Below, in pieces: positions 45 through 31,657 of a stretch of DNA of 64,000 nt (positions are counted from its first letter, which is position 1; each line of letters opens with the position of its first letter). Source of the stretch: a virus; the IMG/VR virus record IMGVR_UViG_3300009506_000019, positions 1-64,000 of that record; one strand, written 5' to 3'. Below the pieces are notes generated by a model that did not search any database, was not told where the DNA came from, and saw nothing but the letters and a program-made list of their open reading frames with translations. Position numbers and translations under genes: made by a program.

Positions 45-61
45 CGGCATGCGTCGTGCAT
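45..61 (+). promoter_or_regulatory. sigma54-type -24/-12 promoter CGGCATGCGTCGTGCAT
   Basis: GG-N10-GC spacing, intergenic, upstream of RBS and GTG at 107. Confidence 0.7.
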
Positions 62-106
62 CCTTCTTGGGTGTGCGGCGTGTGTCGCGCCTGAAAGGAG
101 AGCACG

Positions 107-346
107 GTGAACCCCATCACACAGCACGCGCAGCTGGCTCGAAGCCAGATGCCGAAAGGAAGCGGACCGCACCACCGGTCCAGAGGCGTGTTCGCGAAGC
201 CGCGAGCACACAACGGCAAGACCCGCCTCTTCACGAACCTGGACATCGTGAGGATGCGCCTGGCCGAAGGCGACAAGGCAGGTGCCCGTCGTCTGCTCGA
301 GGAAATCAAGTCCGGAGCCAAGAAGGCCCTGGCCGTAGCCGAGTAG
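107..346 (+). CDS. hypothetical basic protein
   Basis: AGGAG RBS, GTG start, phage-like codon usage. Confidence 0.7.
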   Translation: MNPITQHAQLARSQMPKGSGPHHRSRGVFAKPRAHNGKTRLFTNLDIVRMRLAEGDKAGARRLLEEIKSGAKKALAVAE

Positions 347-373
347 TCCACTCACAAACAGGAGAAAGCAACC

Positions 374-556
374 ATGAACCGTCCGTTTCGAAATCTCGAC
401 CTGGAGCTGCCCGAAGTGTACAAGAAGGCAGCTCAGAAGCGCCGTCGTCAGCTCAACATGGAGGCCAAGAAGATCGCTCCGGGAGCGCCGAGGGTGGCCG
501 TGGCTCGAAACGTGCTTGCGTGGCGTGAGGCGAACAAGCAGCGTCTCGGTCTCTAA
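374..556 (+). CDS. hypothetical basic protein
   Basis: AGGAG..GCAACC-ATG leader. Confidence 0.7.
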   Translation: MNRPFRNLDLELPEVYKKAAQKRRRQLNMEAKKIAPGAPRVAVARNVLAWREANKQRLGL

Positions 557-567
557 ACTGTAAGGTG

Positions 568-622
568 GTCAGTGGGAACGTATCCCCCTCCTCAGCCGGA
601 TCGTGGGAACGTTCCCACTGAC
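568..622. repeat. 14-bp inverted repeat with nested 16-bp palindrome
   Basis: GTCAGTGGGAACGT (568-581) / ACGTTCCCACTGAC (609-622); GTGGGAACGTTCCCAC at 603-618. Confidence 0.9.
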
Positions 623-649
623 TGCATATTTGTTCAACGAGTATTGTGG

Positions 650-825
650 TGTCTTGAGGTACGGACATTCAGGGTTGTATTGTCTCGAGCCTCAGACACG
701 GTGTCCGGAGGTCAAGACAGGTAAGGTATCGAGGGTCTTGAGCTGCAGACATGTTCCGTCGTCAAGACAGGGTATGTCTGGAATTCAAGACACTCGGAAT
801 CGAGAGATGTCGTTCCCACGAGACA
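650..825. repeat. array of seven 18-bp palindromic sites, consensus TGTCTTGA-NN-TCAAGACA
   Basis: copies start at 650, 681, 702, 734, 752, 775, 808; all end GACA; five start TGTC, one GGTC, one TGTT. Confidence 0.88.
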
Positions 826-844
826 CCAACAAGGAGGCTGTCAG

Positions 845-4232: not shown

Positions 4233-4249
4233 TGACATGGCCCTTGCAT
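4233..4249 (+). promoter_or_regulatory. degenerate sigma54-type promoter TGACATGGCCCTTGCAT
   Basis: intergenic, TTGCAT -12 element plus T-rich tail, but GA in place of GG at -24. Confidence 0.35.
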
Positions 4250-4289: not shown

Positions 4290-4478
4290 TTGACAATCCA
4301 AGTCAAAGGCGTACGTATCGACTTTCACGCTACCCACCACGCCACCTATCAGTGGGGAGCGACATTCATATGGCCAAATGGCCGGAAGACCTACGGAGAG
4401 TATCGAACCGTGGGCGAAGCAATCGAATCAGCCAAAACTCACCAAAAGGAGAGCAACCATGACCAAAATGCTGAATGA
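4290..4478 (+). CDS. hypothetical protein
   Basis: AGGAGGT RBS with TTG start. Confidence 0.6.
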   Translation: MTIQVKGVRIDFHATHHATYQWGATFIWPNGRKTYGEYRTVGEAIESAKTHQKESNHDQNAE

Positions 4479-6633: not shown

Positions 6634-6650
6634 CGGCACGTGTCCTGCAT
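6634..6650 (+). promoter_or_regulatory. sigma54-type promoter CGGCACGTGTCCTGCAT
   Basis: GGCAC -24 element, GG-N10-GC, intergenic. Confidence 0.8.
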
Positions 6651-6702: not shown

Positions 6703-6927
6703 ATGGAGATGCAAGAAGTATCGTCATCGAACATCAGGCTGATTGGCTACGACGAGGCCAACAAGACGATGGGTGTCGTGTTTCACAGTGGCAACCTCTA
6801 CCACTTCTTTGACGTGCCAAAAGAAGTGCACGACGAGCTGGTGGAAGCACCGTCCGTGGGCAGGCAGTTCAACACCAGCGTGCGCGACCAGTACGAGTAC
6901 GAGGACAAGGGACCGTACAGTGGGTGA
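6703..6927 (+). CDS. KTSC domain protein
   Basis: VSSSNIRLIGYD...VFHSG.LYHFFDVP..V...L..APSVGRQFN matches the KTSC pattern. Confidence 0.9.
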   Translation: MEMQEVSSSNIRLIGYDEANKTMGVVFHSGNLYHFFDVPKEVHDELVEAPSVGRQFNTSVRDQYEYEDKGPYSG

Positions 6928-8271: not shown

Positions 8272-8288
8272 CGGCACGGGCCGTGCAT
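8272..8288 (+). promoter_or_regulatory. sigma54-type promoter CGGCACGGGCCGTGCAT
   Basis: GG-N10-GC followed by TCTTTT, intergenic. Confidence 0.8.
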
Positions 8289-8344: not shown

Positions 8345-8551
8345 ATGAAAGCCAAGCTCATCGTCGCGTACACCGATAACACCTGGACCGACAAGCTCGT
8401 CGAAGTGCCAGATGGCGTTGTGCCCGACAAGTATTATCGAGGCAGCGTCAAGTGGACGCAGGCAGTTCTGAAGTGGGCGACCGAGAATGCGGATCTCGGC
8501 AAAGAAATCGAGTACGTCGGCATGCTCGATGCGAATCCAGAGGAAGAATAA
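8345..8551 (+). CDS. hypothetical protein
   Basis: RBS, downstream of promoter motif. Confidence 0.7.
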   Translation: MKAKLIVAYTDNTWTDKLVEVPDGVVPDKYYRGSVKWTQAVLKWATENADLGKEIEYVGMLDANPEEE

Positions 8552-9367: not shown

Positions 9368-9799
9368 ATGACGATTAGCTCGTTCGATGGGGAATACCAA
9401 TTCCTCAGCAACTTCTTTCCAGTAACTGTATTCCTGGATGGCGAGTGCTACCCATCGGTTGAGCACGCATATCAGGCAGCAAAAACCACCAACCCATACG
9501 AACGTCAATTCATCAAAGATATGAAAACACCCGGCAGAGCCAAACGTGCTGGTCGTCACCTCATGCTACGTGAAGATTGGGAGCTGATAAAAATCAGCGT
9601 CATGCACGACTTATTGCGCCAAAAATTCAGCCACGAAACGCTGCGCAAACGACTACTGGCCACAGGAGATGAAAAGCTGGAAGAAGGCAACACCTGGAAG
9701 GATTACTTCTGGGGTGTTTGCAACGGAATCGGACAAAACCAGCTTGGCGTGTTGTTGATGCGCGTGCGAGAGGAAATAAGGCACTGTGAGAAAACCTGA
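9368..9799 (+). CDS. NADAR (YbiA-like) family protein
   Basis: FLSNF, YPSVEHAYQAAK, LREDW, LLATG, LEEGN.W.DYFWG, NQLG.LLM.VRE. Confidence 0.93.
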   Translation: MTISSFDGEYQFLSNFFPVTVFLDGECYPSVEHAYQAAKTTNPYERQFIKDMKTPGRAKRAGRHLMLREDWELIKISVMHDLLRQKFSHETLRKRLLATGDEKLEEGNTWKDYFWGVCNGIGQNQLGVLLMRVREEIRHCEKT

Positions 9800-10841: not shown

Positions 10842-10858
10842 TGGCACGGCGTCTGCAT
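10842..10858 (+). promoter_or_regulatory. sigma54-type promoter TGGCACGGCGTCTGCAT
   Basis: TGGCACG -24 element, GG-N10-GC. Confidence 0.82.
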
Positions 10859-10924: not shown

Positions 10925-11464
10925 ATGGCAAAGATCAAGATCAGTGCGCTGGCAGACAGGCTCAGCATGGACCCGAAGGCCGTCATCGCCAAGCTGGCAG
11001 AAGCTGGCATCCAGGCGAAACGACGCGACAGCTCAGTCGATGAGACCGCCGCTCTCGCGGCTCTCGGAACGGCACCCGCTTCAGCTCCGGCCGAGCAGGG
11101 AGCGGAGGTGGTGAGCCTGGACCAGGCACGCGAAAAGAAGGCATCGAAACCGAAGAAGGAAAAGACGCCGAAAAAGCCGAAGTCCGACAGCGACGATTGG
11201 TACAAGAAGTACCCGTGGGTCGTGAAGGGCAGCGTGCGCGAGCCGACCTCAGCCGACCGCAAGGCTCTGGGCTCGCGATGTCACGGCAAGGTGTGCACCG
11301 TCCGATGCGTGGACAGCGGAGTGGAGCGCGTGGTCAACACGCAGGACGCTTTTCAGTCCAAACGCTGCCCGGACGCGCAAAAGGCGTACATGCGTCGCCG
11401 ACGTGCCGAGCGCCGTCAGGCCCGCAAGGATGCCAAGGCAGCCAAGAAAGCCAATCACAGCTAG
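10925..11464 (+). CDS. IF2-N-like domain fused to a novel basic domain (paralog of 21581-21937)
   Basis: KIKISALADRLSMDPKAVIAKLAEAGIQAK..SSVDE resembles the IF2 N-terminal motif; C-terminal domain shared with the 21581 ORF. Confidence 0.65.
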   Translation: MAKIKISALADRLSMDPKAVIAKLAEAGIQAKRRDSSVDETAALAALGTAPASAPAEQGAEVVSLDQAREKKASKPKKEKTPKKPKSDSDDWYKKYPWVVKGSVREPTSADRKALGSRCHGKVCTVRCVDSGVERVVNTQDAFQSKRCPDAQKAYMRRRRAERRQARKDAKAAKKANHS

Positions 11465-11916: not shown

Positions 11917-12176
11917 GGCTCAGCGAGAAACAATACGCCAAGGTCCTGGCTGTAAATAAGGACCACTGCCGGTGGATAATCTCCACCGTCACACGCATAT
12001 TCGGCACGATCCGTGAATGGATCGGCATAGCGTATCCGCCCGACGATGTGGAGCTGGTAGCTACCGTGAGAATCTACCGATCAAAAGACAACAGCTATTT
12101 CATCAAACTCGGCAACCACGCATCCTACACAGCGGGCTATTGGTTTGAACAAACTCACAAGGGAGAGCAATCATGA
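11913..12176 (+). CDS. hypothetical protein
   Basis: ATGA coupling. Confidence 0.6.
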   Translation: MRLSEKQYAKVLAVNKDHCRWIISTVTRIFGTIREWIGIAYPPDDVELVATVRIYRSKDNSYFIKLGNHASYTAGYWFEQTHKGEQS

Positions 12177-13854: not shown

Positions 13855-13864
13855 GAGGAGTACC

Positions 13865-16965: not shown

Positions 16966-16993
16966 TCTATTATCTCACAGGAGGAGAGCAATC

Positions 16994-17578: not shown

Positions 17579-17850
17579 GTGAACCAACCTTCATGCAACA
17601 GCGCATTCACATGCGCCATACCTTCAAGGATGTGATGGAAAGCCTACAGATCCTTGATAGGCATAGCAAAGGTCTGGTTTCGTTGGACCCGGATGAGGTT
17701 GAGCATCATGCTCTCACCGTGGATTTTGCCATGGAGGAAATCAACGAAATCATAGAAGTACAAATGCGCACATTAGTGCCAGATTCACCGGAGCAAAACG
17801 ATGAGAGTGGCGAGATCCACCCTGGAACAGAAGATCCAAAAGCTCACTGA
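17575..17850 (+). CDS. hypothetical protein
   Basis: ATGA coupling. Confidence 0.6.
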   Translation: MSEPTFMQQRIHMRHTFKDVMESLQILDRHSKGLVSLDPDEVEHHALTVDFAMEEINEIIEVQMRTLVPDSPEQNDESGEIHPGTEDPKAH

Positions 17851-19084: not shown

Positions 19085-19619
19085 TTTCTTCCCCATCATC
19101 TTCGACATCAACAACTTGTAACTTGCTTCGCATCTCTTCCATCATATTTTTTATACTAGCAATCGATCTGTAAGCGTCAATAGTTCGCCTACGATCACGT
19201 CTATCCGTCAGGTTCTGAGCCATCAGGATAAGAGGAGATGCAAAAGCTGCTTGAAAGGACAAAACTAGATTAAGCAGGATAAATGGGTATGGATCCCATC
19301 CGGTCACCAGCATTACTGCATTAGCTGCTACCCAGAACGACAGGATAACAGACTGAAGGATAATAAATCTCCAACTACCAATAAACCCAACTACTTTGGT
19401 AGCCACCTTCTCACCAACAGTAGCATCGAGACCATCACCGTAACGAAGATTCTCAATCTCCTCCAGGATGTTCTTTTGTGTCTCAATGATGGTTTTCAGA
19501 TCGGAGTTCGTCATTGCACTTCCATTAACTCTATGCGCAGTTGCTGATAGTAGTTGAGAACACCGACCTCCTAACGTCAAGTTAGGCAGCGATGCCACTA
19601 CTGACAAACACGCTACCAT
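19077..19619 (-). CDS. DUF1003 membrane protein
   Basis: IGSWRFI, WDPYPFILLNLVLSFQAAFASPLILMAQN. Confidence 0.9.
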   Translation of the reverse strand: MVACLSVVASLPNLTLGGRCSQLLSATAHRVNGSAMTNSDLKTIIETQKNILEEIENLRYGDGLDATVGEKVATKVVGFIGSWRFIILQSVILSFWVAANAVMLVTGWDPYPFILLNLVLSFQAAFASPLILMAQNLTDRRDRRRTIDAYRSIASIKNMMEEMRSKLQVVDVEDDGEENG

Positions 19620-19627
19620 CTCTTATT

Positions 19628-21343
19628 TTACAGGTCAGTCATCGACACCACAATGCGCCCTGCCTTGCTGGCCTGTACACCTAATTCCAGATCAGAAGGA
19701 GTCTCGAGTGAAAGCTCTTCTTCGCGCTCTCCCTCTTCTTCCCCTTCCATTCTTTCCTTTTCTTCTTCGATGTTATGCAGGAATACTTCTACAGCGTCAA
19801 CTGCCAGAACATCAGCATTGGGGGCTTCCGGGTCGATGTTTTGGATGGTATAGTCAAGCTCGTCCACATTTTGCTCGTACATACGTACAACTTCTTTGAG
19901 CTTGGCCAATTCGTCTGTATCCTTGGCTCCCATCTTTGGCTTGGGTGGAAGCTTGGTGCCCTTTGGTAGTCCGGCACGTTCTAGCTCCCTCTGCTTACGT
20001 CTTTCCTTTCTGGACTGAGCCAACTCTTCCTTCGTCTTTTTCGGCTTAGGTGCCTTTTTCGATTTAGGGCTAGCTTGAGCAACACGAACACCGACAGACT
20101 TCCAGTATTCGTTCCACTCCCTCATACCTTCAGCCATGTCGTCAACAACAACCATGGCTTGTCTAATCATAACCGCAACATGCTCAGTCATGGGCTGAAC
20201 TTCATAGTTACCCAATGACTCTTCAAATCGACGCAGGCCAGCCTCATCCCACAACCCAAGACGTTCCAGTTTCTCCATACGAACATCATACTTGTCACCA
20301 CTCTTGGTAACCAAGTATGTACGCTTCATGTCTGAACTATAAACCGATACAGTACCGTAATGTTCGAGTGCCTGACCAAGTTTACCTGGTAGACCAGGCT
20401 CATAGGTCGGCATGCCAGGCTCTGCTGGCGCTGCTGGCGTTGGTTGTGTGGTTATAGTTTGAGTTGGCGTGTCGGTCTGTGCAGCTTTGGCAATGTGCCG
20501 CTCATCGTCAGCAGAACCAGACGCTACACCACCAATACCACCAGTTTGAGATCCGGTTGGGCCGACGTAATCGGATTTCGGCTTATCAGAGATTTCTGGC
20601 TCAAAGACATCACCAGCCTCTTTGTCCCCGCCACCTTCTCTCATTTCTTGTTCTACGAATTCTTCTACACCCTCCAACCCCTGTGGTGTATGATCGGTGT
20701 CTTCGTCTTCTTCTTGTTCGATGAATTCCTCTAGTGTGGGACCAGCAGCGCCCTTGTCACCTTCAACCCCGTGCTCTTCGTGTTCCTCATGTTCTTCTTC
20801 GAGAAACTCAGTCATACCAGGTGGAGTTGAAGTCTTTCCACCACCATCAAGTCCCACATCCAATGAGCCTGGTGTGAGGACTAGCACCGTGCCAGTCGCC
20901 ACCTTGCCGTGGACTGGTAGCCGCACCTTGCAACCAACCTTCAACTCCACACCAAAACGGTCTGTGACGGCTACGGAGCTTTCTTTCTTGATAGGCTCAG
21001 GGTCATACCCGAGCACATGATCTTCACCATGCTTGCGGGTCAGAACAAAGCCACCCTCACCAGGCACCATCTCCCACAGATGGTGACCCTCACGGAAAAA
21101 GCCAGTGCCAATTCTTTCAAACTGGCTTGGTATATCAGTAAGACTTGCCACGACAATGCGCTTGGTGGTATTATCGTCATTGCTTACTTTTTGTGCAATC
21201 TTTTTGATTGAGGCGGTCTTCTGATGCTTGGATGCACGCTTTTCTCCGGCACGGCTTACGCCGTCCTTAATACGACGAATGGAATTATCGTCAAGCGTGC
21301 TGGTACCTTGCTGACTGACCCTATTGGCATTCATACGATGCAT
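19628..21343 (-). CDS. large low-complexity protein, possible internal virion protein
   Basis: GGGAG RBS before ATG at 21343; acidic and basic blocks; repeated K/R-x-A-S/Q motifs. Confidence 0.55.
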   Translation of the reverse strand: MHRMNANRVSQQGTSTLDDNSIRRIKDGVSRAGEKRASKHQKTASIKKIAQKVSNDDNTTKRIVVASLTDIPSQFERIGTGFFREGHHLWEMVPGEGGFVLTRKHGEDHVLGYDPEPIKKESSVAVTDRFGVELKVGCKVRLPVHGKVATGTVLVLTPGSLDVGLDGGGKTSTPPGMTEFLEEEHEEHEEHGVEGDKGAAGPTLEEFIEQEEDEDTDHTPQGLEGVEEFVEQEMREGGGDKEAGDVFEPEISDKPKSDYVGPTGSQTGGIGGVASGSADDERHIAKAAQTDTPTQTITTQPTPAAPAEPGMPTYEPGLPGKLGQALEHYGTVSVYSSDMKRTYLVTKSGDKYDVRMEKLERLGLWDEAGLRRFEESLGNYEVQPMTEHVAVMIRQAMVVVDDMAEGMREWNEYWKSVGVRVAQASPKSKKAPKPKKTKEELAQSRKERRKQRELERAGLPKGTKLPPKPKMGAKDTDELAKLKEVVRMYEQNVDELDYTIQNIDPEAPNADVLAVDAVEVFLHNIEEEKERMEGEEEGEREEELSLETPSDLELGVQASKAGRIVVSMTDL

Positions 21344-21441
21344 TTCGATACTCCCAATCTCCGGAGTCTGCGTTCTACTGCTACCGAATAGTCCATTAAG
21401 CATGAATATTGGTAACATTCTGTTCAACCCAATCTCCATAC

Positions 21442-21458
21442 TGGCACACCTCGTGCAT
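21442..21458 (+). promoter_or_regulatory. sigma54-type promoter TGGCACACCTCGTGCAT
   Basis: GG-N10-GC in a divergent intergenic region. Confidence 0.75.
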
Positions 21459-21580
21459 CGCTAATAGGGTATGAAGATGGTAGGGATACCTACACCATAG
21501 GACCTTTTGTGCACTACAGAGTGAACAAATTATCAATCCGTTCCACCATAAGGCTATAACCAAGTGAAAGGAGCTGTACC

Positions 21581-21937
21581 ATGGGTGGTAAGAAAAAGTC
21601 CAAACTTCGTGTTGTGAAGGGTGGCAAGAACGACAAGAAGGCCGCGCCGAAGAAGAAGTTCGACGAGGAAGCCTTCTACAAGAAGTACAAGCATGTCGTT
21701 CCTGGGTCCGTCAAGGAGGCAAAGCCTGGCTCTGTTGTGGACGGCTGCAAGGTCGCACATGGTCGCATCTGCAAGATCAAGTGCAAAGAGACCGGCAAGC
21801 TCCGCACCATCAACGTGCAGGATGCCTTTCAAACCTTCTTCACCGCCGAGGTGCAGAAGCGCAAGCAACTCGAGCGTGCAGCCGAGCGCCGCAAGAAGAG
21901 CGGCAAGAAGGCACGTCGCAAGAGCAAAGCAGGCTGA
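21581..21937 (+). CDS. highly basic small protein (paralog of the 10925 C-terminal domain)
   Basis: KKY..VV.GSV.E, HG..C...C...G..R..N.QDAFQ shared motif; Lys-rich. Confidence 0.8.
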   Translation: MGGKKKSKLRVVKGGKNDKKAAPKKKFDEEAFYKKYKHVVPGSVKEAKPGSVVDGCKVAHGRICKIKCKETGKLRTINVQDAFQTFFTAEVQKRKQLERAAERRKKSGKKARRKSKAG

Positions 21938-21940
21938 CCC

Positions 21941-21984
21941 AGCTGATGGCAGCCTAGTGGAATCAAGCCGCTGGGCTGCCAGCT
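21941..21984 (+). terminator. strong hairpin after the basic-protein gene
   Basis: TGGCAGCCTAGTGG / CCGCTGGGCTGCCA stem; no clear U tract. Confidence 0.55.
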
Positions 21985-22004
21985 ACCCTCCTGTAAATAG
22001 CATA

Positions 22005-22021
22005 TGGCACGTGCCCTGCAT
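22005..22021 (+). promoter_or_regulatory. sigma54-type promoter TGGCACGTGCCCTGCAT
   Basis: 28 nt identical to the 26327 site. Confidence 0.85.
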
Positions 22022-22064
22022 TTTATGATCGTGCGGAAGCTATCACCACACAGGAGGCTCTATC

Positions 22065-22979
22065 ATGACAAATGACATCCAATCCGCACTGGCAAGTGGT
22101 TCGCGAAAGATCGGTTTTCTCACATGGTACGACTGTCGCAATGCGAGCGTCACACCCACCAAGCTGAAGGCTCTCTTCGACAAGCATGGTCTCGATGAGT
22201 CCCATTTCCCGGATACCATCAAACCGAAGAATGCTTTCCAGAAGGCTTGCCGCAAGGCGATGGCCGAGACGAGCACAAGCAGCGACACACGCCGCTCCAT
22301 CACCAAGCTCATCGTCGATGGTCTGGACAAGATCATCTACGGTGTCGTGGATTTGAATGTTCACGAGAAGGCGGAGTCCATCGACCCCGATTTCAGCGAT
22401 AAGGTGTGGCTCGACAAGAACACACTCAGCGTCGGATTCGACAAGGGACACGACCTGTCCCGCAATGTGAAGAAGATCTTCGACCAGCTCTGTGGTGAAT
22501 ACACGACACGCGACATCAGCCGCATGATCGTAAAGTCTCTCGACCACATGGCGTCTGTCTCCCTCCGTGATGCTGGCGTCATCTACTTCGTGCCTGTCGG
22601 CTTCGAAAAAGATCTGCTCGCTCTACAGGGAGTGGTGAACGACGTGGGCGAGTGCAATATGAGAGTTTTTGCGCTGGGCTCCAGCGATGGGAACTCGGCC
22701 GGAATCGAGAATGCTGCAAAAAGCCAGATTGCAGACAAGATCGATGCGATGAAGGAAGACATCGCAGACTTGAAAGAATCCATCGAGTCTGGTACCGTCA
22801 AGGGTAAGACGGTGGACAACAGTATCGAAGTCCGTCGCAAGAGGTTCAATGAGCTGAAGATGCGATGTCAAGTGTTGGCCGATGCTCTCAAAATCAAGGC
22901 CGACACGCTCGAAGGGAATCTGGGCGAGGTTGAGGACCTCATCAACAAGGAACTGGAAGAGTTCGTCGGCGCTGCGTGA
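22065..22979 (+). CDS. DUF6744-like protein
   Basis: G.LTW...VT...L..LF..HGL....P..I.P..AF..A, G.IYFVP pattern recalled for this family. Confidence 0.55.
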   Translation: MTNDIQSALASGSRKIGFLTWYDCRNASVTPTKLKALFDKHGLDESHFPDTIKPKNAFQKACRKAMAETSTSSDTRRSITKLIVDGLDKIIYGVVDLNVHEKAESIDPDFSDKVWLDKNTLSVGFDKGHDLSRNVKKIFDQLCGEYTTRDISRMIVKSLDHMASVSLRDAGVIYFVPVGFEKDLLALQGVVNDVGECNMRVFALGSSDGNSAGIENAAKSQIADKIDAMKEDIADLKESIESGTVKGKTVDNSIEVRRKRFNELKMRCQVLADALKIKADTLEGNLGEVEDLINKELEEFVGAA

Positions 22980-23182
22980 TGCTAGTCTACGAATCATTCA
23001 CTGAGGAAGAAATCCGCATCGAGGCAGAGAATTTTGCTGAAGATGCGGATCTTCCTTTCCCCTCTTTCAACGAGGCAATGAACGTTTATTTGAATTCAAA
23101 ACCATCAACGTGGAGATTGATCTCCCACTGCATGTTTGGATCCTACACGAAACACCAATTCATTTGGTCAACCGGAGAATGA
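22979..23182 (+). CDS. hypothetical protein
   Basis: TGATG coupling. Confidence 0.55.
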   Translation: MLVYESFTEEEIRIEAENFAEDADLPFPSFNEAMNVYLNSKPSTWRLISHCMFGSYTKHQFIWSTGE

Positions 23183-23185
23183 AAG

Positions 23186-23659
23186 ATGGCCACCGAGAAT
23201 CGTGAGCCGCGAGACGTCCTGAGCGATACGAACGTGTATATGAAGTGCGTTCCGTTCGAAAACAAAGAAGGCGGCTACTTCATCGGCAATTGCAACATCG
23301 AAGTCGGTCTCAAAAACACCGTCTTGCGATTTGTGCCTCCCCATCCAGACGACGTGGAGGCTGCACAGGCCGAAGGAAGAAAGGCCGTAGGACGACTCGT
23401 CATCCTGAATGGCACCTACAATAATGAAGAATTTGAAGAATTCATGTCAGAAACGGAAGATCTCGAAGGGATCCCAGCCTACTTCCATGGTCTGTGCAAC
23501 ATGGACATCAATGCGCTGGACACCGTAATCAAGTTCTTCCCGGAACGATTCGATGAGAAGAACGTGCTACTCATCAATCAGACGCAGAGACGTGATGGCA
23601 AGAGGATCGACAACCCAATGGAGGTTAAGATCTTCATGCGATGCAAGAACCTGCGTTAA
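23186..23659 (+). CDS. hypothetical protein
   Basis: GGAG RBS; internally repeated CN(I/M)(E/D)(V/I)....TV..F.P motif. Confidence 0.7.
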   Translation: MATENREPRDVLSDTNVYMKCVPFENKEGGYFIGNCNIEVGLKNTVLRFVPPHPDDVEAAQAEGRKAVGRLVILNGTYNNEEFEEFMSETEDLEGIPAYFHGLCNMDINALDTVIKFFPERFDEKNVLLINQTQRRDGKRIDNPMEVKIFMRCKNLR

Positions 23660-23665
23660 GATAGC

Positions 23666-23682
23666 TGGCACGGTATATGCAT
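23666..23682 (+). promoter_or_regulatory. sigma54-type promoter TGGCACGGTATATGCAT
   Basis: GG-N10-GC, intergenic. Confidence 0.82.
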
Positions 23683-23728
23683 TCTTGTATGGTAGGCAAC
23701 TCACACCTACCCTGTATTGGAGACAACC

Positions 23729-24841
23729 ATGAGCACTGATTATCGCGGAAAGATTTCGCAGAACATCGACGAGCTGCAAAGCCGATTCTTTGAGAGGGAC
23801 CATATCATCCTCTCGGCATGGGCAGCTCTACTCTCTCGCAACCACATGCTGCAGCTTGGCGTCCCTGGCACAGCCAAATCGATGTTGACACAAGCAATGT
23901 GTGCAAGCATCAGCGGCTCACGCTACTTCGAACGTCTGCTGACCAAATTCTCCCCTCCAGAGGAGCTGTTTGGACCTACCAGCATGAAGGGGCTCGAAAA
24001 CGACGAGTATCGTCGTATCACCACAAAGATGCTGCCGGAAGTGGAGATCGCGTTCATCGACGAAATCTTCAAGGCCAATGCATCAATTCTCAACAGCCTG
24101 CTAACCATCATCAACGAGCGCGAATTTGACAACGGCACTGACCGTACAAAGGTGCCGCTCATCTCTCTGTTCGGAGCAAGCAACGAACTCCCACAAGAAG
24201 AGGAATTGGAGGCTCTGTACGATCGCTTCCTTCTTCGCTTCGACGTGCCGTATATCCAAGACGGCAGCAATTGGGAAGCCTTGATGCTGATGGATGATGA
24301 CGACCTGGTAGTCGAAAACACCATCACGTTGAAGGAATTGCAAGCAGCACAAGCAGAAGTCCGCAAGGTCACACTGTCTCCCGCCACCGTCAAGACCATG
24401 CGCGAAATCAAGATGCGCTTGGAGCGGCAGGGTGTCATCGCCAGCGACAGACGATGGAAGCAGACGGTGCGTGTGCTCAAGGCATGGGCTTGGCTGCACG
24501 GCCGCGATGAGGTAGTGACTCAGGACCTGAGCCTGTTGTGCGACATGATGTGGCGCGACCCAGGCCAACGTCCCATCGTCGTGCAGGAAGTCTTGGCCGT
24601 CACCAATCCGCTGGACCTGGCTGCCACCGAGATCTACGACACCGTGAACGATGTCTACTCCAAGTGGGACCCGAAAGATTCGGCATCCACGGAAGAGACC
24701 GCTGCCAAGATCCGGCTTGCCATGGAGAAACTGGATCACACCATCAAGACCGGCAAGGAAGAAATGCTGGGCAAGACTCGTGAGGTCCGCAACATCATGG
24801 CGATGTGGTACAAGGAAGTCCTCAAGTCAATGGATTTGTGA
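23729..24841 (+). CDS. RavA/MoxR-family AAA+ ATPase
   Basis: Walker A GVPGTAKS, EELFGP, Walker B FIDEIFKA, ASNELP, ALYDRF, SDRRW. Confidence 0.92.
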   Translation: MSTDYRGKISQNIDELQSRFFERDHIILSAWAALLSRNHMLQLGVPGTAKSMLTQAMCASISGSRYFERLLTKFSPPEELFGPTSMKGLENDEYRRITTKMLPEVEIAFIDEIFKANASILNSLLTIINEREFDNGTDRTKVPLISLFGASNELPQEEELEALYDRFLLRFDVPYIQDGSNWEALMLMDDDDLVVENTITLKELQAAQAEVRKVTLSPATVKTMREIKMRLERQGVIASDRRWKQTVRVLKAWAWLHGRDEVVTQDLSLLCDMMWRDPGQRPIVVQEVLAVTNPLDLAATEIYDTVNDVYSKWDPKDSASTEETAAKIRLAMEKLDHTIKTGKEEMLGKTREVRNIMAMWYKEVLKSMDL

Positions 24842-25023
24842 TGCACGACTTCGACGAACAAGAAGAAAGCCTGTCCTGGACAGTAACCAAGTGGGCTTAT
24901 TGGATTTTCAAAGCTGTGGTGATCACAGGACTCATCACAGGCATCCTCATCAGCCAGCAATGCCGTGATTTCATGAGCGGCCAGGTGAAGGAAATTTGCG
25001 AACTGATTAGGATTTGTGGTTAA
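24841..25023 (+). CDS. small membrane protein
   Basis: TGATG coupling, one TM segment. Confidence 0.55.
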   Translation: MHDFDEQEESLSWTVTKWAYWIFKAVVITGLITGILISQQCRDFMSGQVKEICELIRICG

Positions 25024-25031
25024 CTGAAGAT

Positions 25032-25176
25032 GGGAGGCGTGTCCGGTGATTCACGGTTCTTTACTGCAGTCCTATACCCATCCGTGGGTAAACCGTGGAC
25101 GCAGCATGGTTGCCCGTGAGTTGTCGTTAGTGAGACTCCCTGGGCGGTGAGGTCACGCTAAACCGCCCGTCCTTTT
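25032..25176 (+). ncRNA. candidate structured RNA followed by a terminator-like hairpin
   Basis: non-coding gap with nested stems (see finding). Confidence 0.4.
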
Positions 25177-25188
25177 GAGGAGAAGAAA

Positions 25189-25581
25189 ATGGACGTAGTT
25201 GACCGCATTGTGAAAATCGTAAACCTCGCCATCGAAGCCGATCCATCTGCCATGCGGGCTCTTTTCGAAAATCGAGTCCCGTGCAATCAACGTCTGGCCG
25301 ATGACCCGGAAATCCAAGTCATGAAGGAAAACGATGACGTTGGTTATACCATCGGTGTGCTTGGCCTTTTGAGTGGAATCGCTGGTGTCCGCACCTACAA
25401 AGGCCAGGAGAATTTCTCCAAAATTTGGGCCGTCTACAATGTGGACTGCCCAATCCATGGCACCAATGAAGAAGAGCCTGGCCTTGCAGTAGGGGAAACT
25501 TGCCCTGTTGAAGGCTGCGAAGAGAAGTTGGTGCTGGGTGACTTGTTGCGAATTGAAAGGGTGCCAGCAGAAACGGAATAG
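25189..25581 (+). CDS. hypothetical protein
   Basis: GAGGAG RBS; DP.AM.AL...RVPCN..LAD.P motif. Confidence 0.75.
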   Translation: MDVVDRIVKIVNLAIEADPSAMRALFENRVPCNQRLADDPEIQVMKENDDVGYTIGVLGLLSGIAGVRTYKGQENFSKIWAVYNVDCPIHGTNEEEPGLAVGETCPVEGCEEKLVLGDLLRIERVPAETE

Positions 25582-25583
25582 GC

Positions 25584-25832
25584 GTGAACGACGAAGTGCC
25601 TCCAGTTTGGGATCAGATTGTAGCTCTACCAACGTGGACGCTCAACAACCTGATGTATCCGTTTTTGCCAGAGGATCATCTATTCAAGCGATACAAAGCA
25701 ACCCCTCCCCTGGCAAACTGGACCAAATGGAGAACGCCACTTCACACGCTATTCGACACAGCCATTTGGATTTCAGGATCGATGTTGCTGGTAACGTTAA
25801 TCGCAATGTTTTTCAAGCATATAGCTCAGTAG
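25584..25832 (+). CDS. small membrane protein
   Basis: C-terminal TM segment. Confidence 0.55.
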   Translation: MNDEVPPVWDQIVALPTWTLNNLMYPFLPEDHLFKRYKATPPLANWTKWRTPLHTLFDTAIWISGSMLLVTLIAMFFKHIAQ

Positions 25833-25833
25833 T

Positions 25834-25909
25834 GCTCCCATAGAACAATGGTTAGTTCACCGGGCTTTCAATCCGGGCACAGTGGGTTCGATTCCCCTTG
25901 GGAGCACCA
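25834..25909 (+). tRNA. tRNA-Glu (anticodon TTC)
   Basis: acceptor GCTCCCA/TGGGAGC, D arm GAAC/GTTC, anticodon loop CT-TTC-AA, GGTTCGATTCC, encoded CCA; T-stem imperfect. Confidence 0.92.
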
Positions 25910-25923
25910 TATTTGAGGTACCT

Positions 25924-26322
25924 ATGAAACTAGCTCCAAAAAGAAAGAGAGTGGGACCGCCAAATAAGATCACCAAGTATAAATATGGCAGTGAATACCG
26001 AAGGCTCCGTAATCTTCTCCTCCAACACGACCTCAAGCACAACACCGACGCATTTAGATGTGATGAACGACTGATGCGTGCGGCTATTCTCATGTTTGCT
26101 GGTCTGGAAATAGGAACAGACAGCGTAGACAACCTCTATCGTTATCTTGGTTACAACATCCAAAAATACTGCATTCAAGACATGTCATCACGTCTTCGCA
26201 AAAACGGAATATGGCAGAAAGGATCAACCTGTTGCAATTGGAATGACGAGCACGGCTATATTGAATTGATGTGTGACTCTATGGTAGCAATCGGGCTATT
26301 GGCGTGTGAACCGGTAAGGTAG
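25924..26322 (+). CDS. hypothetical protein
   Basis: GAGG RBS. Confidence 0.65.
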   Translation: MKLAPKRKRVGPPNKITKYKYGSEYRRLRNLLLQHDLKHNTDAFRCDERLMRAAILMFAGLEIGTDSVDNLYRYLGYNIQKYCIQDMSSRLRKNGIWQKGSTCCNWNDEHGYIELMCDSMVAIGLLACEPVR

Positions 26323-26326
26323 TATC

Positions 26327-26343
26327 TGGCACGTGCCCTGCAT
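26327..26343 (+). promoter_or_regulatory. sigma54-type promoter TGGCACGTGCCCTGCAT
   Basis: identical to the 22005 site over 28 nt. Confidence 0.85.
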
Positions 26344-26371
26344 TTTATGATCGTACAGGAGGCGCGTATAC

Positions 26372-27736
26372 ATGATTATCACCAACCTAGATGCATGGGA
26401 TCGCCGCGAATTCCTCGATTGCATGCAGTACGACCAGAAGCTGAAAGATGTCGAAATCGACGGGAGCAAGCGACAGCCCAACTTCGCAGAATTCATGATC
26501 GATATCTTTGGTGGGCTTTACAAGTACGAGCCCAAGCTGCGTGAAGAGGATCAGAAAATCGCTGGCACGGAGTGGATGGACGAGATCTACAATGAGATCT
26601 CCCAGCTCCAAGAATGGAAGACGCTACGCGAGCGCACGCGCATGAACGGTGGTGCCTCGGCCGAAGCCACGGCTGAGTTTTGTCTCCAATTCATGGACCA
26701 GGTGCCAAAGCCACCAAAAAAGAATCAGCAGCAGCAACCACAACCACAGCAACAAGGACAGCCGCAGCAAGGCGGTGGTGCTGGCAACCAGCCCAAGCCA
26801 CCAGGGCTCGACATGTCCAAGATTCGCCAAGCTGCACGCAATGCATGCAAAAAGGCGACCGAGGCAGCAGACCGACACAACAGCATGATGTCTGCTTTCG
26901 GTCAGGGCAATGAAACAGGCATTCGACAAACTACCGCTCCTGGTCTGAAGAAGCAGCTGGCCGAAAAGCTCGTTAACAACGAGCACCTTCGCAAGATTGC
27001 AGAACTGGCCGGTCGTATGAAGAGACTCGCCATCCAAAAGCAGAAATCCAAGACTCGGTATGGGACCGATGAAATCGCCAACATCACAGTGGGCGACGAA
27101 TTGTCTCGTCTCGTGCCATCAGAGATTGCCAAACTCTCACATCCCGTCCTGAAGAAGGACTTCTTCAAGCGATACCTGGAAAAGAGCCTGCTCCAGTATC
27201 AACTACGCGGACGCGAGAAAGAAGGACGCGGACCGCTCATCGTCTGCATCGACGAATCCGGCACCATGAGTGGACAACGGGACATCTGGGCCAAAGCCGT
27301 AGCTATGGCTCTACTCCACATCGCACAGCGTCAGAAGCGCCGCTATTTCATGATCCATTATGACTCCAATGTGACCAGGACCGACGAGTTTTTTGGAACT
27401 GCCGATCCTCTGGAGATCATTGACGCAATTTCCCACTACACTGCTGGTGGAACCGAATTTGAAGAGCCACTGAACATGGCGCTTCAGATGATCAACAAGG
27501 GAAAGGAAACCGGATACAAGAAAGCCGACATCGTATTCATCACAGATGGACAAGCTACCGTATCAGACCAATTCCTACAGATCTTCAACATGGGAAAGAA
27601 GGTAGCCAACTTCCAGGTTATCGGCGTGGCCATTGATTGCCGCGATGTGGAGACACTCAAGAAGTTCTCCGATCAGCTGATTCACGTTTGGGGTGGACGC
27701 GACGATGAAGCCCTGAACATCATGTTCGACGTATAG
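26372..27736 (+). CDS. VWA domain protein (ViaA/CoxE-like partner of the AAA ATPase)
   Basis: MIDAS-like DESGT, GGT.F..PL, DIVFITDG; GDELSRLVPSE; Gln-rich linker. Confidence 0.9.
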   Translation: MIITNLDAWDRREFLDCMQYDQKLKDVEIDGSKRQPNFAEFMIDIFGGLYKYEPKLREEDQKIAGTEWMDEIYNEISQLQEWKTLRERTRMNGGASAEATAEFCLQFMDQVPKPPKKNQQQQPQPQQQGQPQQGGGAGNQPKPPGLDMSKIRQAARNACKKATEAADRHNSMMSAFGQGNETGIRQTTAPGLKKQLAEKLVNNEHLRKIAELAGRMKRLAIQKQKSKTRYGTDEIANITVGDELSRLVPSEIAKLSHPVLKKDFFKRYLEKSLLQYQLRGREKEGRGPLIVCIDESGTMSGQRDIWAKAVAMALLHIAQRQKRRYFMIHYDSNVTRTDEFFGTADPLEIIDAISHYTAGGTEFEEPLNMALQMINKGKETGYKKADIVFITDGQATVSDQFLQIFNMGKKVANFQVIGVAIDCRDVETLKKFSDQLIHVWGGRDDEALNIMFDV

Positions 27737-27745
27737 GGGAACCCC

Positions 27746-29602
27746 ATGACCAAAGATTTGGAACAAAAGTTGCAACAGGCTCGAGAAGCGTATTACAAAG
27801 ACGGCACCTCTCCATTGACGGATGCCGAGTATGATGCTCTCGAGGATGAGCTTCGTGCCGTAGATCCAGACAATCCACTACTCAAAGAGGTTGGAGCCGA
27901 CACCGACAGTGGCTGGTCCAAGGCCAGACATGAGATTCCGATGGGATCTCTCAACAAGGTGCAAAACAAAGACCAGTACAATTCCTGGTTGAAGAGCGTA
28001 GGACTCAATGTAGGAGAATTCGGTGTTGGAATCCTTTTCATCAGCGAGAAGCTAGACGGTAGCTCTATCGCTGTACAGTACGTGGATGGCGTCTACACCA
28101 AAGCCATCACACGTGGCGATGGGGAAGAAGGGGAAGACATCACACCCAATGTCGCCAAGATGAAAAATGTGCCACCGAATCTCCCAATCAAATGGACTGG
28201 TTGGCTACGTGGTGAGATCCTTCTATTCAAGGAGGATTGGCAACAGCACATGAGCGATAAGAAGAACCCACGCAACGCAGCTGCTGGCACAGCAAAACGC
28301 CACGATGGCGAAGGCTGTGAACATCTCACCGTCTTGTACTACGACATGACGGATTCTGGTACGTACACCAGCGACAAACTCATGGCAAAACATGGGATGC
28401 TCGAATTCATCGAAAATGCTCTGGGTCTACGCACAGCCAACCATGTTGGACCAGTCATCCCAAATGAAATACCAGGCATTGTTGAGTCATGGGAGCAGAA
28501 TAGGGAGGAGATTCCATACGAAATCGATGGAATGGTCATTGAAATCAACGCCCGCAACATGTTCGAGATGATGGGTGAAACAGACAACCGACCGAAGGGG
28601 GCGGTAGCTTACAAGTTCAAGCCCATCCAAAAGACAACCAAGGTACGAGACATCACGTGGCAGGTAGGACGCACAGGACGTGTTACGCCTGTGGCTGAAC
28701 TGGAGCCAGTAGACATTGGTGGTGTGACAATTTCACGCGCCTCGCTTCACACCGCACGGATGGCACTGGACAGCAACGCTGGTCCCGGTGCCTTGGTTGT
28801 TATCTCACGCAGGAATGATGTAATTCCATACGTGGAGAATGTCATTCAGGGAGCAAAGGTTCAACCACCCAAGTTCCCATGCGATTGGGATGGAGAGTAT
28901 CTCGTTGTTCGCGAAATGGACGATAAGACCGAGCTTTACAACTCCATCAAAACTTGGGTACAACGTCTCCGCATCCTCCATTGGGGCGACGCACTCATCA
29001 AGCTCATCATCGATTATGAGCTGGCTTCCTCCCTTCCGGATTTGTATAGCCTGGATTGGAACTTCTTGGGTGACCTTGCTGGTCAAGGTGTTGCGAAGCG
29101 TGCCAAGAAATCTCTCGAGGACAAGGGGCAAGACATTCCGTTCGCAGACTTCATCTCGGCTTTGAACATCAGATTCCTGGACACAAAGTCCAAGAATTTG
29201 GTAGCCATCGGCATCGATACTCCCGAGAAGCTCCTGGCTGCTACTGTAGACCAGCTCACAACAGCGGAAGGCATCGGCGACACCAAAGCTGTTGAGATCC
29301 GGAAGAGCCTCGACAAACTCAAACCAGTTATCGAACGGATGGGAAAGATTATATCTTTCGAAGAGAAGAGTGGCCCATTGGCTGGCCTCTCATTCTGCTT
29401 CACTGGAGCTATGAGCAGGCCACGGAAAGAACTGGAAAACATGGCACTCGACGCTGGTGCTGAAGTCAAAAAGTCCGTATCTGCTGGGCTCACCCATCTG
29501 GTCATGGCCAATCCAGACTCCACCACAACCAAGGCACAGAAGGCACGGAAGCTTGGCACCAAGTGCATCAGTGAGGCCGAGTTTAAGGGGATGTTCTCAT
29601 AA
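27746..29602 (+). CDS. ligA: NAD-dependent DNA ligase
   Basis: D.EYD, SEKLDG, TRGDG, LRGEI, NPRNAAAG, QVGRTG, C-terminal BRCT. Confidence 0.95.
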   Translation: MTKDLEQKLQQAREAYYKDGTSPLTDAEYDALEDELRAVDPDNPLLKEVGADTDSGWSKARHEIPMGSLNKVQNKDQYNSWLKSVGLNVGEFGVGILFISEKLDGSSIAVQYVDGVYTKAITRGDGEEGEDITPNVAKMKNVPPNLPIKWTGWLRGEILLFKEDWQQHMSDKKNPRNAAAGTAKRHDGEGCEHLTVLYYDMTDSGTYTSDKLMAKHGMLEFIENALGLRTANHVGPVIPNEIPGIVESWEQNREEIPYEIDGMVIEINARNMFEMMGETDNRPKGAVAYKFKPIQKTTKVRDITWQVGRTGRVTPVAELEPVDIGGVTISRASLHTARMALDSNAGPGALVVISRRNDVIPYVENVIQGAKVQPPKFPCDWDGEYLVVREMDDKTELYNSIKTWVQRLRILHWGDALIKLIIDYELASSLPDLYSLDWNFLGDLAGQGVAKRAKKSLEDKGQDIPFADFISALNIRFLDTKSKNLVAIGIDTPEKLLAATVDQLTTAEGIGDTKAVEIRKSLDKLKPVIERMGKIISFEEKSGPLAGLSFCFTGAMSRPRKELENMALDAGAEVKKSVSAGLTHLVMANPDSTTTKAQKARKLGTKCISEAEFKGMFS

Positions 29603-29925
29603 TGCAATACATCGGCGCGTTCGTACAAATGCTCCCATCAGGTCGCGGATACAAGGCGTACCTATGGGGGCAACCAGACCTGCACATCATGGATTGGAAC
29701 GGTGCAAACTATCGACGCGCCACAATTCCAGGCCAACCACTTTTCGGATTTCAAACACCTGAGAAGGCAATTAACTTCGTACTGGCAAACTACCAAACCG
29801 AAGCTGATTTGAAGAAATACGCCGAGAAGTGTGGTGATGGAGCCTTTCTCACAGACGAATTTATAACCGATTCACACGAGGTCAGGTGGGATGGGAAGAA
29901 AAAAGCAACCAAGGTATGTGATTAG
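29602..29925 (+). CDS. hypothetical protein
   Basis: TAATG coupling. Confidence 0.6.
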   Translation: MQYIGAFVQMLPSGRGYKAYLWGQPDLHIMDWNGANYRRATIPGQPLFGFQTPEKAINFVLANYQTEADLKKYAEKCGDGAFLTDEFITDSHEVRWDGKKKATKVCD

Positions 29926-30124
29926 GTGGAGCCACAACTGTTACTACCATCCACGCAAACAGATGCTGCTTGGAGAGCAAGGCAAGAAGCTTGCAAGACG
30001 CTACACGCGTGGAGAAGCAGAAAGGGTCATCAAAAATTGGGGCAGTAATTGGCCCAACGCAAAGATTGAAGAGGTAGATGATGGACGACAATCAGTGGAA
30101 GGCGAAGATTCAGGCAATAACTGA
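29891..30124 (+). CDS. hypothetical protein
   Basis: ORF in operon; overlaps both neighbours. Confidence 0.45.
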   Translation: MGRKKQPRYVIRWSHNCYYHPRKQMLLGEQGKKLARRYTRGEAERVIKNWGSNWPNAKIEEVDDGRQSVEGEDSGNN

Positions 30125-30461
30125 CCCTGTTGTCCTTCTGAGGGAAATTGTTATAGCTGTTGACGATGGCTACTTTGGCCACGACCCATACTATAAAGAC
30201 ATAAAGGAAGTATACATGAACAAGGCAATAGAATTGTCTGGTGGAGAGCTGACGATCTGTATGGAACGTCTTTTGAACGATATTGATTGTTCAGGTGACG
30301 GCCACGTACAGATGGTGAATTACAACAAAGCCACAATTCAGGGCCTTCTTGATCGTGGGCTTATCACCCTACTCATGCACCGAAAACACGGCCCACATGA
30401 TGGTAAGGTTATCCGCCGTCGCAGAAACAAGGAATATCAAAACCCACAACTCAACAGGTGA
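30078..30461 (+). CDS. hypothetical protein
   Basis: GAGG RBS. Confidence 0.65.
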   Translation: MMDDNQWKAKIQAITDPVVLLREIVIAVDDGYFGHDPYYKDIKEVYMNKAIELSGGELTICMERLLNDIDCSGDGHVQMVNYNKATIQGLLDRGLITLLMHRKHGPHDGKVIRRRRNKEYQNPQLNR

Positions 30462-30464
30462 CAT

Positions 30465-30797
30465 ATGGCAGACAAAAACGAAACCTATAGCGTGCCAGGA
30501 CAGTTGGCTGTCGCCTTGCAGAGTGGACGTGGACAATTCGTCCAGCTCTACATGGCTGAAATCGACAAAGGCATCGAAATTCCAAGAGAACAACTCAAGG
30601 AAATCGTGCGCCTTGTTGGTGACATGATCGAAGACAACCGCCAACTTCGACACGAGAACCAAGTGCTGCGTAGCCTCATCAGCGACACCAAGGTGGAGCT
30701 GAAAGAACAACTCGATCACATCGAGTTCGCAAGGAACGAAGCACGCAAGACATTGCGTGAGATGCAGCAACAAATCGACGAACTGGACGAAGACTGA
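30465..30797 (+). CDS. coiled-coil protein
   Basis: heptad-rich C-terminus. Confidence 0.7.
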   Translation: MADKNETYSVPGQLAVALQSGRGQFVQLYMAEIDKGIEIPREQLKEIVRLVGDMIEDNRQLRHENQVLRSLISDTKVELKEQLDHIEFARNEARKTLREMQQQIDELDED

Positions 30798-31273
30798 TGC
30801 CAAGACGATATGCGCAAAACACAGCCACGCCAATCGCACGTAGCCGTGGAGAGATCACCAAACTTCTCCAAGATTGGGGTGCGACGGCTATTCAATGGAC
30901 CGACGAATTCGAAGCGGACAAGTGTACGCTCCGGTTCATGTGGAAGCATGATGACACGGAGTACCTTGCACGCATCTCTATTGGCCTTCCTGGTCGAGAT
31001 GAGCTTGAAGAGGAAGCCTGGCACGGTGGCTTGAAACGTGTACATGAGGGGAAGCTCAAGAAACTCATGTCTGGACGTGGAAAACAAGAACATCGACTCT
31101 TGCTCCTGTGGATCAAAGCCGCACTAAACGCGGTAGATGCAGGCATGGTTTCTGCCGAAGCCATCTTCCTTCCATTCTTTGAAGACCAACAGGGCAACAC
31201 TGTAGCCGAAATTGCTGTTCCCAAGTTGGCCAAGTTGCGGTCTGGGTCCGCAATGAAACTGCTGACATCATGA
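30797..31273 (+). CDS. conserved phage hypothetical protein
   Basis: RYA..T.......RSR.EI...L..WGA; R.L.L.IKA.L.AV..G.......FLP. Confidence 0.75.
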   Translation: MPRRYAQNTATPIARSRGEITKLLQDWGATAIQWTDEFEADKCTLRFMWKHDDTEYLARISIGLPGRDELEEEAWHGGLKRVHEGKLKKLMSGRGKQEHRLLLLWIKAALNAVDAGMVSAEAIFLPFFEDQQGNTVAEIAVPKLAKLRSGSAMKLLTS

Positions 31274-31464
31274 AGTGGAAGATGCTGCCACGAGGATACA
31301 ACAGACGTTGTGTTGCTCTGGACAGTGACGGCAAACGCTGCAGAAAGAAAGCCACCTGGAAAGGCGAATACCACGGTGATGGCGAAATCTACACGTATTT
31401 CGACAACGCGCCACAGTGGGTCCAGGTAGAAATGTGTAACGAACACGCGAGCAAGTGTAAATGA
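31270..31464 (+). CDS. small Cys/His protein
   Basis: RC......GKRC...C.EH. Confidence 0.6.
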   Translation: MKWKMLPRGYNRRCVALDSDGKRCRKKATWKGEYHGDGEIYTYFDNAPQWVQVEMCNEHASKCK

Positions 31465-31640
31465 GTCAATTCGAAAACAAACTTGAGGTTGAAAAAATCG
31501 AAGACGGACAGTGTTTCTCTTGCAACAGAGAAGGACGAGTCACCCGCATTCGAACCAAAAACACCAACTACTCTATGAGATCCATGTGTCTGTGCTACAA
31601 ATGCCTGGCGTGGTTGAAGGGGAAACTACGTGGCTTTTGA
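31461..31640 (+). CDS. small zinc-finger protein (not in the ORF track)
   Basis: ATGA coupling; CFSC...CYKC. Confidence 0.55.
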   Translation: MSQFENKLEVEKIEDGQCFSCNREGRVTRIRTKNTNYSMRSMCLCYKCLAWLKGKLRGF

Positions 31641-31657
31641 TGGTACGGGTTATGCAT
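31641..31657 (+). promoter_or_regulatory. sigma54-type promoter TGGTACGGGTTATGCAT
   Basis: GG-N10-GC, about 15 nt before the helicase ATG. Confidence 0.7.

Follow-up and report, generated by a model that had tools for sequence, protein, structure and literature searches.

The plus-strand arm and its repeated element

We examined the first 64 kb of IMG/VR virus record IMGVR_UViG_3300009506_000019 (hereafter G000), a 166,061-bp genome from marine sediment that is rated complete and has a GC content of 48%; this stretch of 64,000 nucleotides (nt), whose genes were called by codon usage, is referred to as the window. Our subject is a short two-box element that recurs between genes in the first half of the window and that resembles the -24/-12 promoters of bacterial sigma-54 (RpoN). 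The genes concerned form a plus-strand arm at 1-33.2 kb, which holds about 65 mostly small genes and is broken by a four-gene minus-strand island at 18180-21439; beyond this arm the remainder of G000 consists of minus-strand genes. The plus arm encodes a DUF6744 protein, a RavA/MoxR-type AAA+ ATPase, a VWA protein, an NAD-dependent ligase and a helicase, together with a NADAR protein, a DMP19-like protein, a CheY-like receiver and small ORFans, and most of its other genes could not be assigned to a family. The minus arm carries genes for DnaE, a DnaB-primase fusion, ThyX, SbcC-like and SbcD-like proteins and a trigger-factor-like protein. It is this gene content that would place the plus arm early in infection.

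The preliminary description of this DNA had listed 11 plus-strand copies of the element, lying between genes or on an upstream stop codon, and all 11 are present as listed. It missed a further copy at 13823, and the degenerate copy that it named at 4233 does exist but is weak enough to be doubtful. Ten of the 12 good copies lie in gaps between called genes, which make up 14% of the plus arm, while one (16949) falls on a stop codon and one (13823) within the last ten codons of a gene; often the sites begin 6-14 nt past the preceding stop. All copies point toward their gene, and 29-126 nt separate the C of the -12 box from the next start codon.

The pattern GGYAY-N6-TGCAT occurs 12 times in the 64 kb, always on the plus strand and always within 1-32 kb, against an expectation of 0.55 +/- 0.76 (maximum 3) in 100 dinucleotide shuffles, which confirms the observation. 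The loose form GG-N10-GCAT alone was not enriched (43 copies against 35.7 expected) and the signal therefore resides in the full motif. With a matrix derived from the 12 sites, each of them reaches 18.6-34 bits (9.8-31.7 bits in a leave-one-out test), and when both strands of the 166-kb genome were scanned with it no other site scored above 16.8 bits; across the whole genome strong copies are confined to the plus strand between 46 and 31642. Spacing is equally strict: within 1-33.2 kb a spacer of N6 was found in 9 copies versus 0-1 for every other spacer from N2 to N10, the GG and GC doublets are exactly 10 nt apart in 12 of 12 sites, and N6 is the sole enriched spacer in G000 and in five relatives introduced below (L022, L024, L025, G003 and G004).

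The first copy, CGGCAT-N6-TGCAT at 45-61 (25.7 bits), has a predicted transcription start (+1) near 70 and would serve a unit from GTG 107; if that is the start codon, it lies about 49 nt from the -12 C. The doubtful sequence at 4233-4249, TGACAT-N5-TTGCAT with GA for GG (13.8 bits), stands before a gene at 4290-4478. Further copies are found at 6634-6650 (26.8 bits), 14 nt past the stop at 6621 and before gene 6703-6927; at 8272-8288 (33.1 bits), before gene 8345-8551; and at 10842-10858 (30.8 bits), 9 nt past the stop at 10834 and before an IF2_N-like gene at 10925-11464. The added copy at 13823-13839 (29.4 bits) lies in the 3' end of the CheY-like open reading frame (ORF) at 13522-13854 and precedes gene 13865-14362, with 29 nt from its -12 C to the ATG. 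At 16470-16486 (34.0 bits) a copy situated 7 nt past the stop at 16464 precedes gene 16513-16956, and the next, at 16949-16965, overlaps the stop codon of that gene at 16956, precedes gene 16994-17578 and has an orthologous site in both L022 and L024. The weakest exact copy, at 21442-21458 (18.6 bits; leave-one-out 9.8), adjoins the start of the minus-strand island and stands before gene 21581-21937. Copies at 22005-22021, 23666-23682 and 26327-26343 precede, respectively, the DUF6744 gene (22065-22979), the RavA/MoxR-like AAA+ gene (23729-24841; predicted +1 at 23691) and the VWA gene (26372-27736), the last of the three copies lying 6 nt past a stop at 26322. Finally, a TGGTAC variant at 31641-31657 precedes the helicase gene with a very short leader. 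As listed, the helicase ORF has GTG 31630 as its first codon, which lies ahead of the gene's own promoter; both the family match and the relatives make ATG 31673 the likely start, which would put about 19 nt between the -12 C and the start codon and leave a leader of ~7 nt.

Form of the element and its conservation

Aligned, the copies give the consensus TGGCACG-N4-nTGCAT, in which the GG-N10-GC spacing is exact; behind it come a T-rich run and then G-T-A. Column counts were taken over 27 sites from four genomes, the window and its close relatives: T-26 is present in 24 of 27, the C of the -24 box in 26, its A in all 27, G-20 in 25, and T-14 and A-11 in all 27. Positions +1 to +3 are conserved as well (G in 21, T in 19 and A in 17 of the 27), and the G lies exactly 12 nt past the -12 C. 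A T at -15 is found in none of the 12 window sites and in none of the 27.

The motif of the E. coli sigma-54 holoenzyme is TGGCACnnTTnTTGC (PMC8743547). With its spacing exact, the phage element agrees with the sigma-54 consensus at T-26, GG, C, A, C, G-20, T-14, GC and A-11, so that the match proposed in the preliminary description holds and extends beyond the GG and GC doublets to TGGCACG and TGCA. With bacterial -24/-12 promoters it shares TGGCAC at -24, TGC at -12, GG-N10-GC, a G directly behind TGGCAC, A/T-rich sequence as far as the start and an orientation toward the gene. Unlike bacterial sigma-54 promoters, the copies are phage-borne, recur about once per 2.5 kb over a 33-kb arm, lack the -15 T throughout a clade, carry a conserved G-T-A at +1 to +3, and have no recognisable enhancer within 250 nt and no activator gene detected in the same genome. 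Given the motif match, the orientation and conservation of the sites and a phage in which neither a sigma-54 nor a bacterial enhancer-binding protein (bEBP) was detected, the host RpoN hijack suggested earlier is the best reading, and we consider it likely that the sites are promoters read by the host sigma-54 RNA polymerase; recognition itself is what we infer here.

In many copies the site begins 6-14 nt past a stop codon and has a T-rich run behind it, a terminator scan flags three of them (43, 8270 and 16945), and breakpoints between variant phages coincide with the motif, all of which would suit intrinsic terminators, hairpins in the RNA where genes end, or simply recombination joints that have no promoter function. 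However, the cores fold no better than shuffled sequence (mean energy -3.3 kcal/mol versus -2.3 kcal/mol), and an energy below -5.8 kcal/mol is reached by just three copies. The cores share no stem and show no covariation, nor do their invariant bases pair among themselves. Strict strand bias and fixed spacing indicate a protein reader, and we regard a terminator or joint without promoter activity as extremely improbable. The motif is, as judged from its sequence, a two-box signal read by a protein and not a hairpin.

No close relative of G000 was found among isolated phages. Megablast of 12 kb against isolated phages gave no match, tblastn with DnaE against isolated phages gave nothing above 31% identity, and IMG/VR, searched with the RavA-like protein alone and with DnaE alone, yielded no close kin. 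In public assemblies three relatives were reached through VWA homologues, and counts for them cover the loci compared here: L022, from a 174.6-kb contig (VWA identity 73%), L024 (57%) and L025 (52%, with a GC content of only 38%). Gene order is kept in all three. The motif precedes the VWA gene and a gene for a 194-residue protein in L022, L024 and L025, the RavA-like gene and the helicase in L022 and L024, and the DUF6744 gene in L022 and L025. In the regions upstream of the VWA and RavA-like genes both boxes are invariant in four genomes (52-73% protein identity, 38-49% GC); the conserved columns of these alignments are the -24 box, the -12 box and the ribosome site, while the spacer varies and the upstream flank cannot be aligned. 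The leader of the RavA-like gene also contains a hairpin, at 23691-23711 of the window, that is kept in the four genomes: changes in it compensate each other, its loop is conserved (AACTCACA-like), and its first base is the predicted +1 at 23691.

More distant kin, G003 and G004, were reached with the conserved phage sigma factor (discussed below) as probe. G003, a 160.7-kb genome with terminal repeats, has 13 forward and 7 reverse copies of the motif versus 1 and 1 of the reversed control pattern; its copies lie divergently around 80 kb and have canonical TTGCAA, and in a 20-kb stretch 8 of 13 are followed by a Shine-Dalgarno sequence and by an ORF of at least 53 codons that begins 27-45 nt past the -12 C. 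The preliminary description had seen the replacement of the -15 T as a hint of a phage-specific variant or activator; the replacement is real in every window site, but the canonical sequence of G003 makes it a trait of the close clade only and not a hallmark of phage use. In G004 there are 0 forward and 20 reverse copies (control 1 and 0), and copies are fewer in a further genome, G001, with 4 forward and 7 reverse (control 2 and 2).

Candidate readers and the opening of the sites

The preliminary description had named a gene on the minus strand at 46934-47740, outside the promoter set, as an alternative reader of the motif. The ORF has no Pfam match and no PHROG annotation. Its AlphaFold model (mean pLDDT, a per-residue confidence score, of 78.6) contains a sigma-2 domain that aligns with region 2 of sigmaE (Z 9.8, root-mean-square deviation 2.9 A over 94 residues) and a sigma-4 domain that aligns with SigL (Z 9.3, 3.1 A over 73 residues), and the top 50 Foldseek matches of the model are all sigma factors. 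The product is, by its modelled structure, a divergent phage sigma-70-family factor, similar to those of the extracytoplasmic function (ECF) group and with an N-terminal Cys cluster; the gene belongs to the core set, and identities in the alignment of the family run from 36 to 81%.

If this factor, or another phage factor, read the motif, the likeness to sigma-54 promoters would be convergent. In line with such a view, the gene accompanies the motif in every motif-bearing genome, and a loosely conserved GTA lies 18-19 nt past TGGCAC, near ECF -35/-10 spacing. Sigma-70-family factors require promoter elements spaced 16-18 nt apart, but the spacing of the two strongly conserved boxes is only 6 nt. 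Moreover, (i) taking GTA as the -10 element would put the start inside or past the Shine-Dalgarno sequence at the four short-leader sites; (ii) TGCA, the most conserved part of the motif, would be without a role; (iii) the motif keeps the universal sigma-54 consensus where the phage sigma has diverged to 38-48% identity; and (iv) it is improbable that convergence would yield 11 of the 12 consensus positions together with the exact spacing. In k-mer and dyad counts of the minus arm we found no second promoter motif that could be assigned to the phage sigma. The sigma factor turned out to be real, but the geometry of the sites does not fit it, and we think it unlikely that a phage factor of this kind reads the motif.

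Reading by host sigma-54 suggests the following scenario. Host RNA polymerase carrying host sigma-54 would bind the -24 (TGGCAC) and -12 (TGCA) boxes, an enhancer-binding AAA+ activator would open the promoter by an ATP-driven step, and transcription would begin at the conserved G, 12 nt past the -12 C. The transcripts would have short leaders with a Shine-Dalgarno sequence and would make up about a dozen units over the 33-kb plus arm. At four sites the ATG follows the -12 C by only 29-32 nt and AGGAGG lies in this interval; because the Shine-Dalgarno sequence of these four begins 15-18 nt past the -12 C, the start would have to fall directly after the -12 box, a position that suits sigma-54 but no -35/-10 reader. 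Sigma-70-like promoters were not in excess in the plus arm in either count (4 versus 7.2 and 18 versus 15.8 expected). Four metatranscriptome runs gave, for 13700-33699, low-depth contigs of several variant phages that cross several sites and may include DNA carry-over; as they reveal no starts or ends, these contigs have no bearing on transcription or start sites.

Sigma-54 promoters require an activator (PMC5095919), and we searched for one along with a phage sigma-54. The whole-genome search that had been proposed, for rpoN-like or GAFTGA-containing genes, found none in G000: GAFTGA is absent from its six frames, profile searches of G000, G001, G003 and G004 gave no match above cut-off to PF04552, the DNA-binding domain of sigma-54, or to PF00158, the ATPase domain of bEBPs, and G000 has none to PF04963, the core-binding domain of sigma-54, or to Sigma70_r2 either. 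For the RavA-like ATPase, E. coli RavA was matched (E 1.7e-56) but no bEBP. As to enhancers, no dyad (4-nt half-sites, spacer 0-14) is common to at least 5 of 12 upstream regions, and no recognisable enhancer lies within 250 nt upstream of the sites. Because no common upstream enhancer is present, a host activator would have to act from solution or from sites beyond those detected.

The stand-alone CheY-like receiver at 13522-13854 on the plus strand scores just under the threshold for its family (PF00072, 29.9 bits versus a cut-off of 30.2), has a homologue in L022 and retains the acidic pocket, the phospho-acceptor Asp, the Ser and the Lys-Pro. It is a possible link to host two-component or bEBP signalling, and the presence of a response-regulator domain in a phage beside sigma-54-type promoters is suggestive.

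The failure to find an activator gene or an enhancer would agree with sites that bind the host sigma-54 holoenzyme without being mainly productive and that sequester it in closed complexes, as decoys, roadblocks or insulators between gene cassettes. The holoenzyme does make stable closed complexes without an activator (PMC5095919), and opposed, overlapping copies occur at 85013, 85037 and 85044 of G000. Against such non-productive docking, all 12 copies share the direction of the following genes and lie 29-126 nt before their starts; a conserved purine stands at the canonical distance, one site has a conserved hairpin in its 5' untranslated region, and the arm shows no excess of other promoters that could express its roughly 60 genes. 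We consider docking of this kind very unlikely.

Several points weigh against reading by host sigma-54. That the host has rpoN is an assumption. Without an activator a sigma-54 promoter stays silent, and the searches turned up no phage bEBP and no enhancer common to the sites; sigma-54 control is also mechanistically awkward if the genes of the arm are early. Every motif-bearing phage has the conserved phage sigma as well, so that co-occurrence cannot separate the two readers, and the consensus -15 T is missing from all sites of the close clade.

A broader proposition is that the whole lineage of 160-178-kb sediment phages runs this arm on host sigma-54 without a conventional bEBP or enhancers. 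We offer it tentatively and think it less than probable. A sigma-54 arm of that sort would entail an unknown way of opening sigma-54 promoters, and the missing -15 T would then tune the -12 fork-junction lock. One possibility is that the opener is a phage factor unrelated to bEBPs, for which the set of RavA-like ATPase, VWA and DUF6744 proteins and the CheY-like receiver, which are co-conserved and lie behind these promoters, are candidates. Another possibility is a captured host activator that is switched on at infection, such as an envelope-stress activator.

Precedents, neighbouring features and side observations

There is precedent for a phage using host sigma-54. The development of Pseudomonas phage YuA (Yuavirus) depends on it (Ceyssens 2008, cited in PMC5053324), and ONT-cappable-seq mapped the start of one sigma-54-like promoter in YuA, among many sigma-70-like and phage-specific promoters (PMC10914365). 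The statement in the preliminary description that well-studied phages mostly use sigma-70-type promoters or their own thus needs YuA as an exception (PMC5053324, PMC10914365). In our literature search no phage with a large sigma-54 regulon was found, and YuA was the only published precedent. The likeness lies in a lytic phage with no RNA polymerase of its own that uses a host sigma-54-type promoter, whereas YuA has one such promoter in that mapping study and G000 has 12-13 sites, with up to 20 in its kin, spread over a whole arm and conserved in a lineage of 160-178-kb phages; no sequence relationship to YuA was seen. The plus arm probably runs on a route of host transcription that has seldom been described in phages.

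A second comparison concerns arrangement. The T4-type promoter early stem-loops (PeSLs) are repeated early-promoter cassettes composed of a sigma-70 promoter and a stem-loop. As in those phages, one module is repeated between small accessory genes, often right after the preceding stop; variant breakpoints fall at the module, and copies within a genome are homogenised (DUF6744 and VWA, also in L022). Unlike the T4 modules, the copies of G000 have sigma-54-type boxes and no stable stem.

In this connection, the DUF6744 and VWA promoters (22005-22032 and 26327-26354) are identical over 28 nt. The corresponding two promoters of L022 are again identical to each other but unlike those of the window. 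Such identity within a genome suggests that the copies are homogenised by gene conversion or share an expression setting. In contigs of variant phages from RNA libraries, likeness to the window begins or ends at the boxes (22005, 26356), and one variant phage has TGGCAT-ATATCC-TGCAT before its VWA gene; these breakpoints suggest that cassettes are exchanged at the promoters.

A third comparison concerns activation. FlgR of Helicobacter and CtcC of Chlamydia are sigma-54 activators that work independently of enhancers. By pure analogy, an activator of this type would account for promoters without upstream activator sites.

Among bacterial routes of transcription, only that of sigma-54 stays fully off until its promoters are opened by an ATPase activator, and phage biology rests almost wholly on sigma-70 promoters and phage polymerases. 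If an arm of this size runs on sigma-54 without an activator of its own, infection would be either gated by the signalling state of the host or dependent on an unknown mode of firing, and either answer bears on the timing of the programme of uncultured phages. Being short and conserved, the promoters lend themselves to a direct in vitro test that needs no cultured host. They would also offer compact, orthogonal and tightly off parts for engineering.

With regard to the host, trigger-factor look-alikes gave a loose pointer to Bacteroidota, but the strong AGGAGG sites speak against it. Look-alikes of the ligase are viral, and the sole match in a genome collection was a 4.9-kb contig in an actinomycete bin; none of these pointers led to a host. 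The fit to hosts in which RpoN is essential, put forward in the preliminary description, is a guess.

Among the neighbouring genes, the NADAR-domain protein is encoded at 9368-9799 (match 6e-24) and the DMP19-like protein at 12173-12718 (match 1e-4, below the cut-off). These two proteins are likely to have counter-defence or DNA-mimic functions, which fits a host-takeover arm.

Near the left end of the arm, a 290-nt non-coding stretch at 557-844 has a perfect 16-nt palindrome at 603-618. The arm's one palindrome array is found here, at 650-825, and consists of TGTC-N10-GACA in five exact copies, or seven if loose ones are counted; such sites are absent elsewhere in the arm, and most of the promoters are far away. 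The stretch may serve as an origin, as an operator bank or as an enhancer.

In the minus arm of G000, a region at 84994-85059 (L029:2495-2560) contains three sigma-54-like boxes, at 85013, 85037 and 85044, two of which overlap head to head. It separates a small membrane/coiled-coil gene from a gene for a 219-residue protein, and G001 has the same divergent pair at L030:2210-2310. A 13-fold excess of TGGYAY-N3-TGCW on the minus strand was set aside as a Gly-Thr-x-Ala coding repeat and no signal. Beyond the lineage, a scan of IMG/VR for the exact 17-mer pattern returned 12 single matches, about the chance level. An unrelated 43-kb viral contig brought up by that scan (L014:7932-8367) carries three copies of TGGCAC-N6-TGCAT, in both orientations, within 430 nt.

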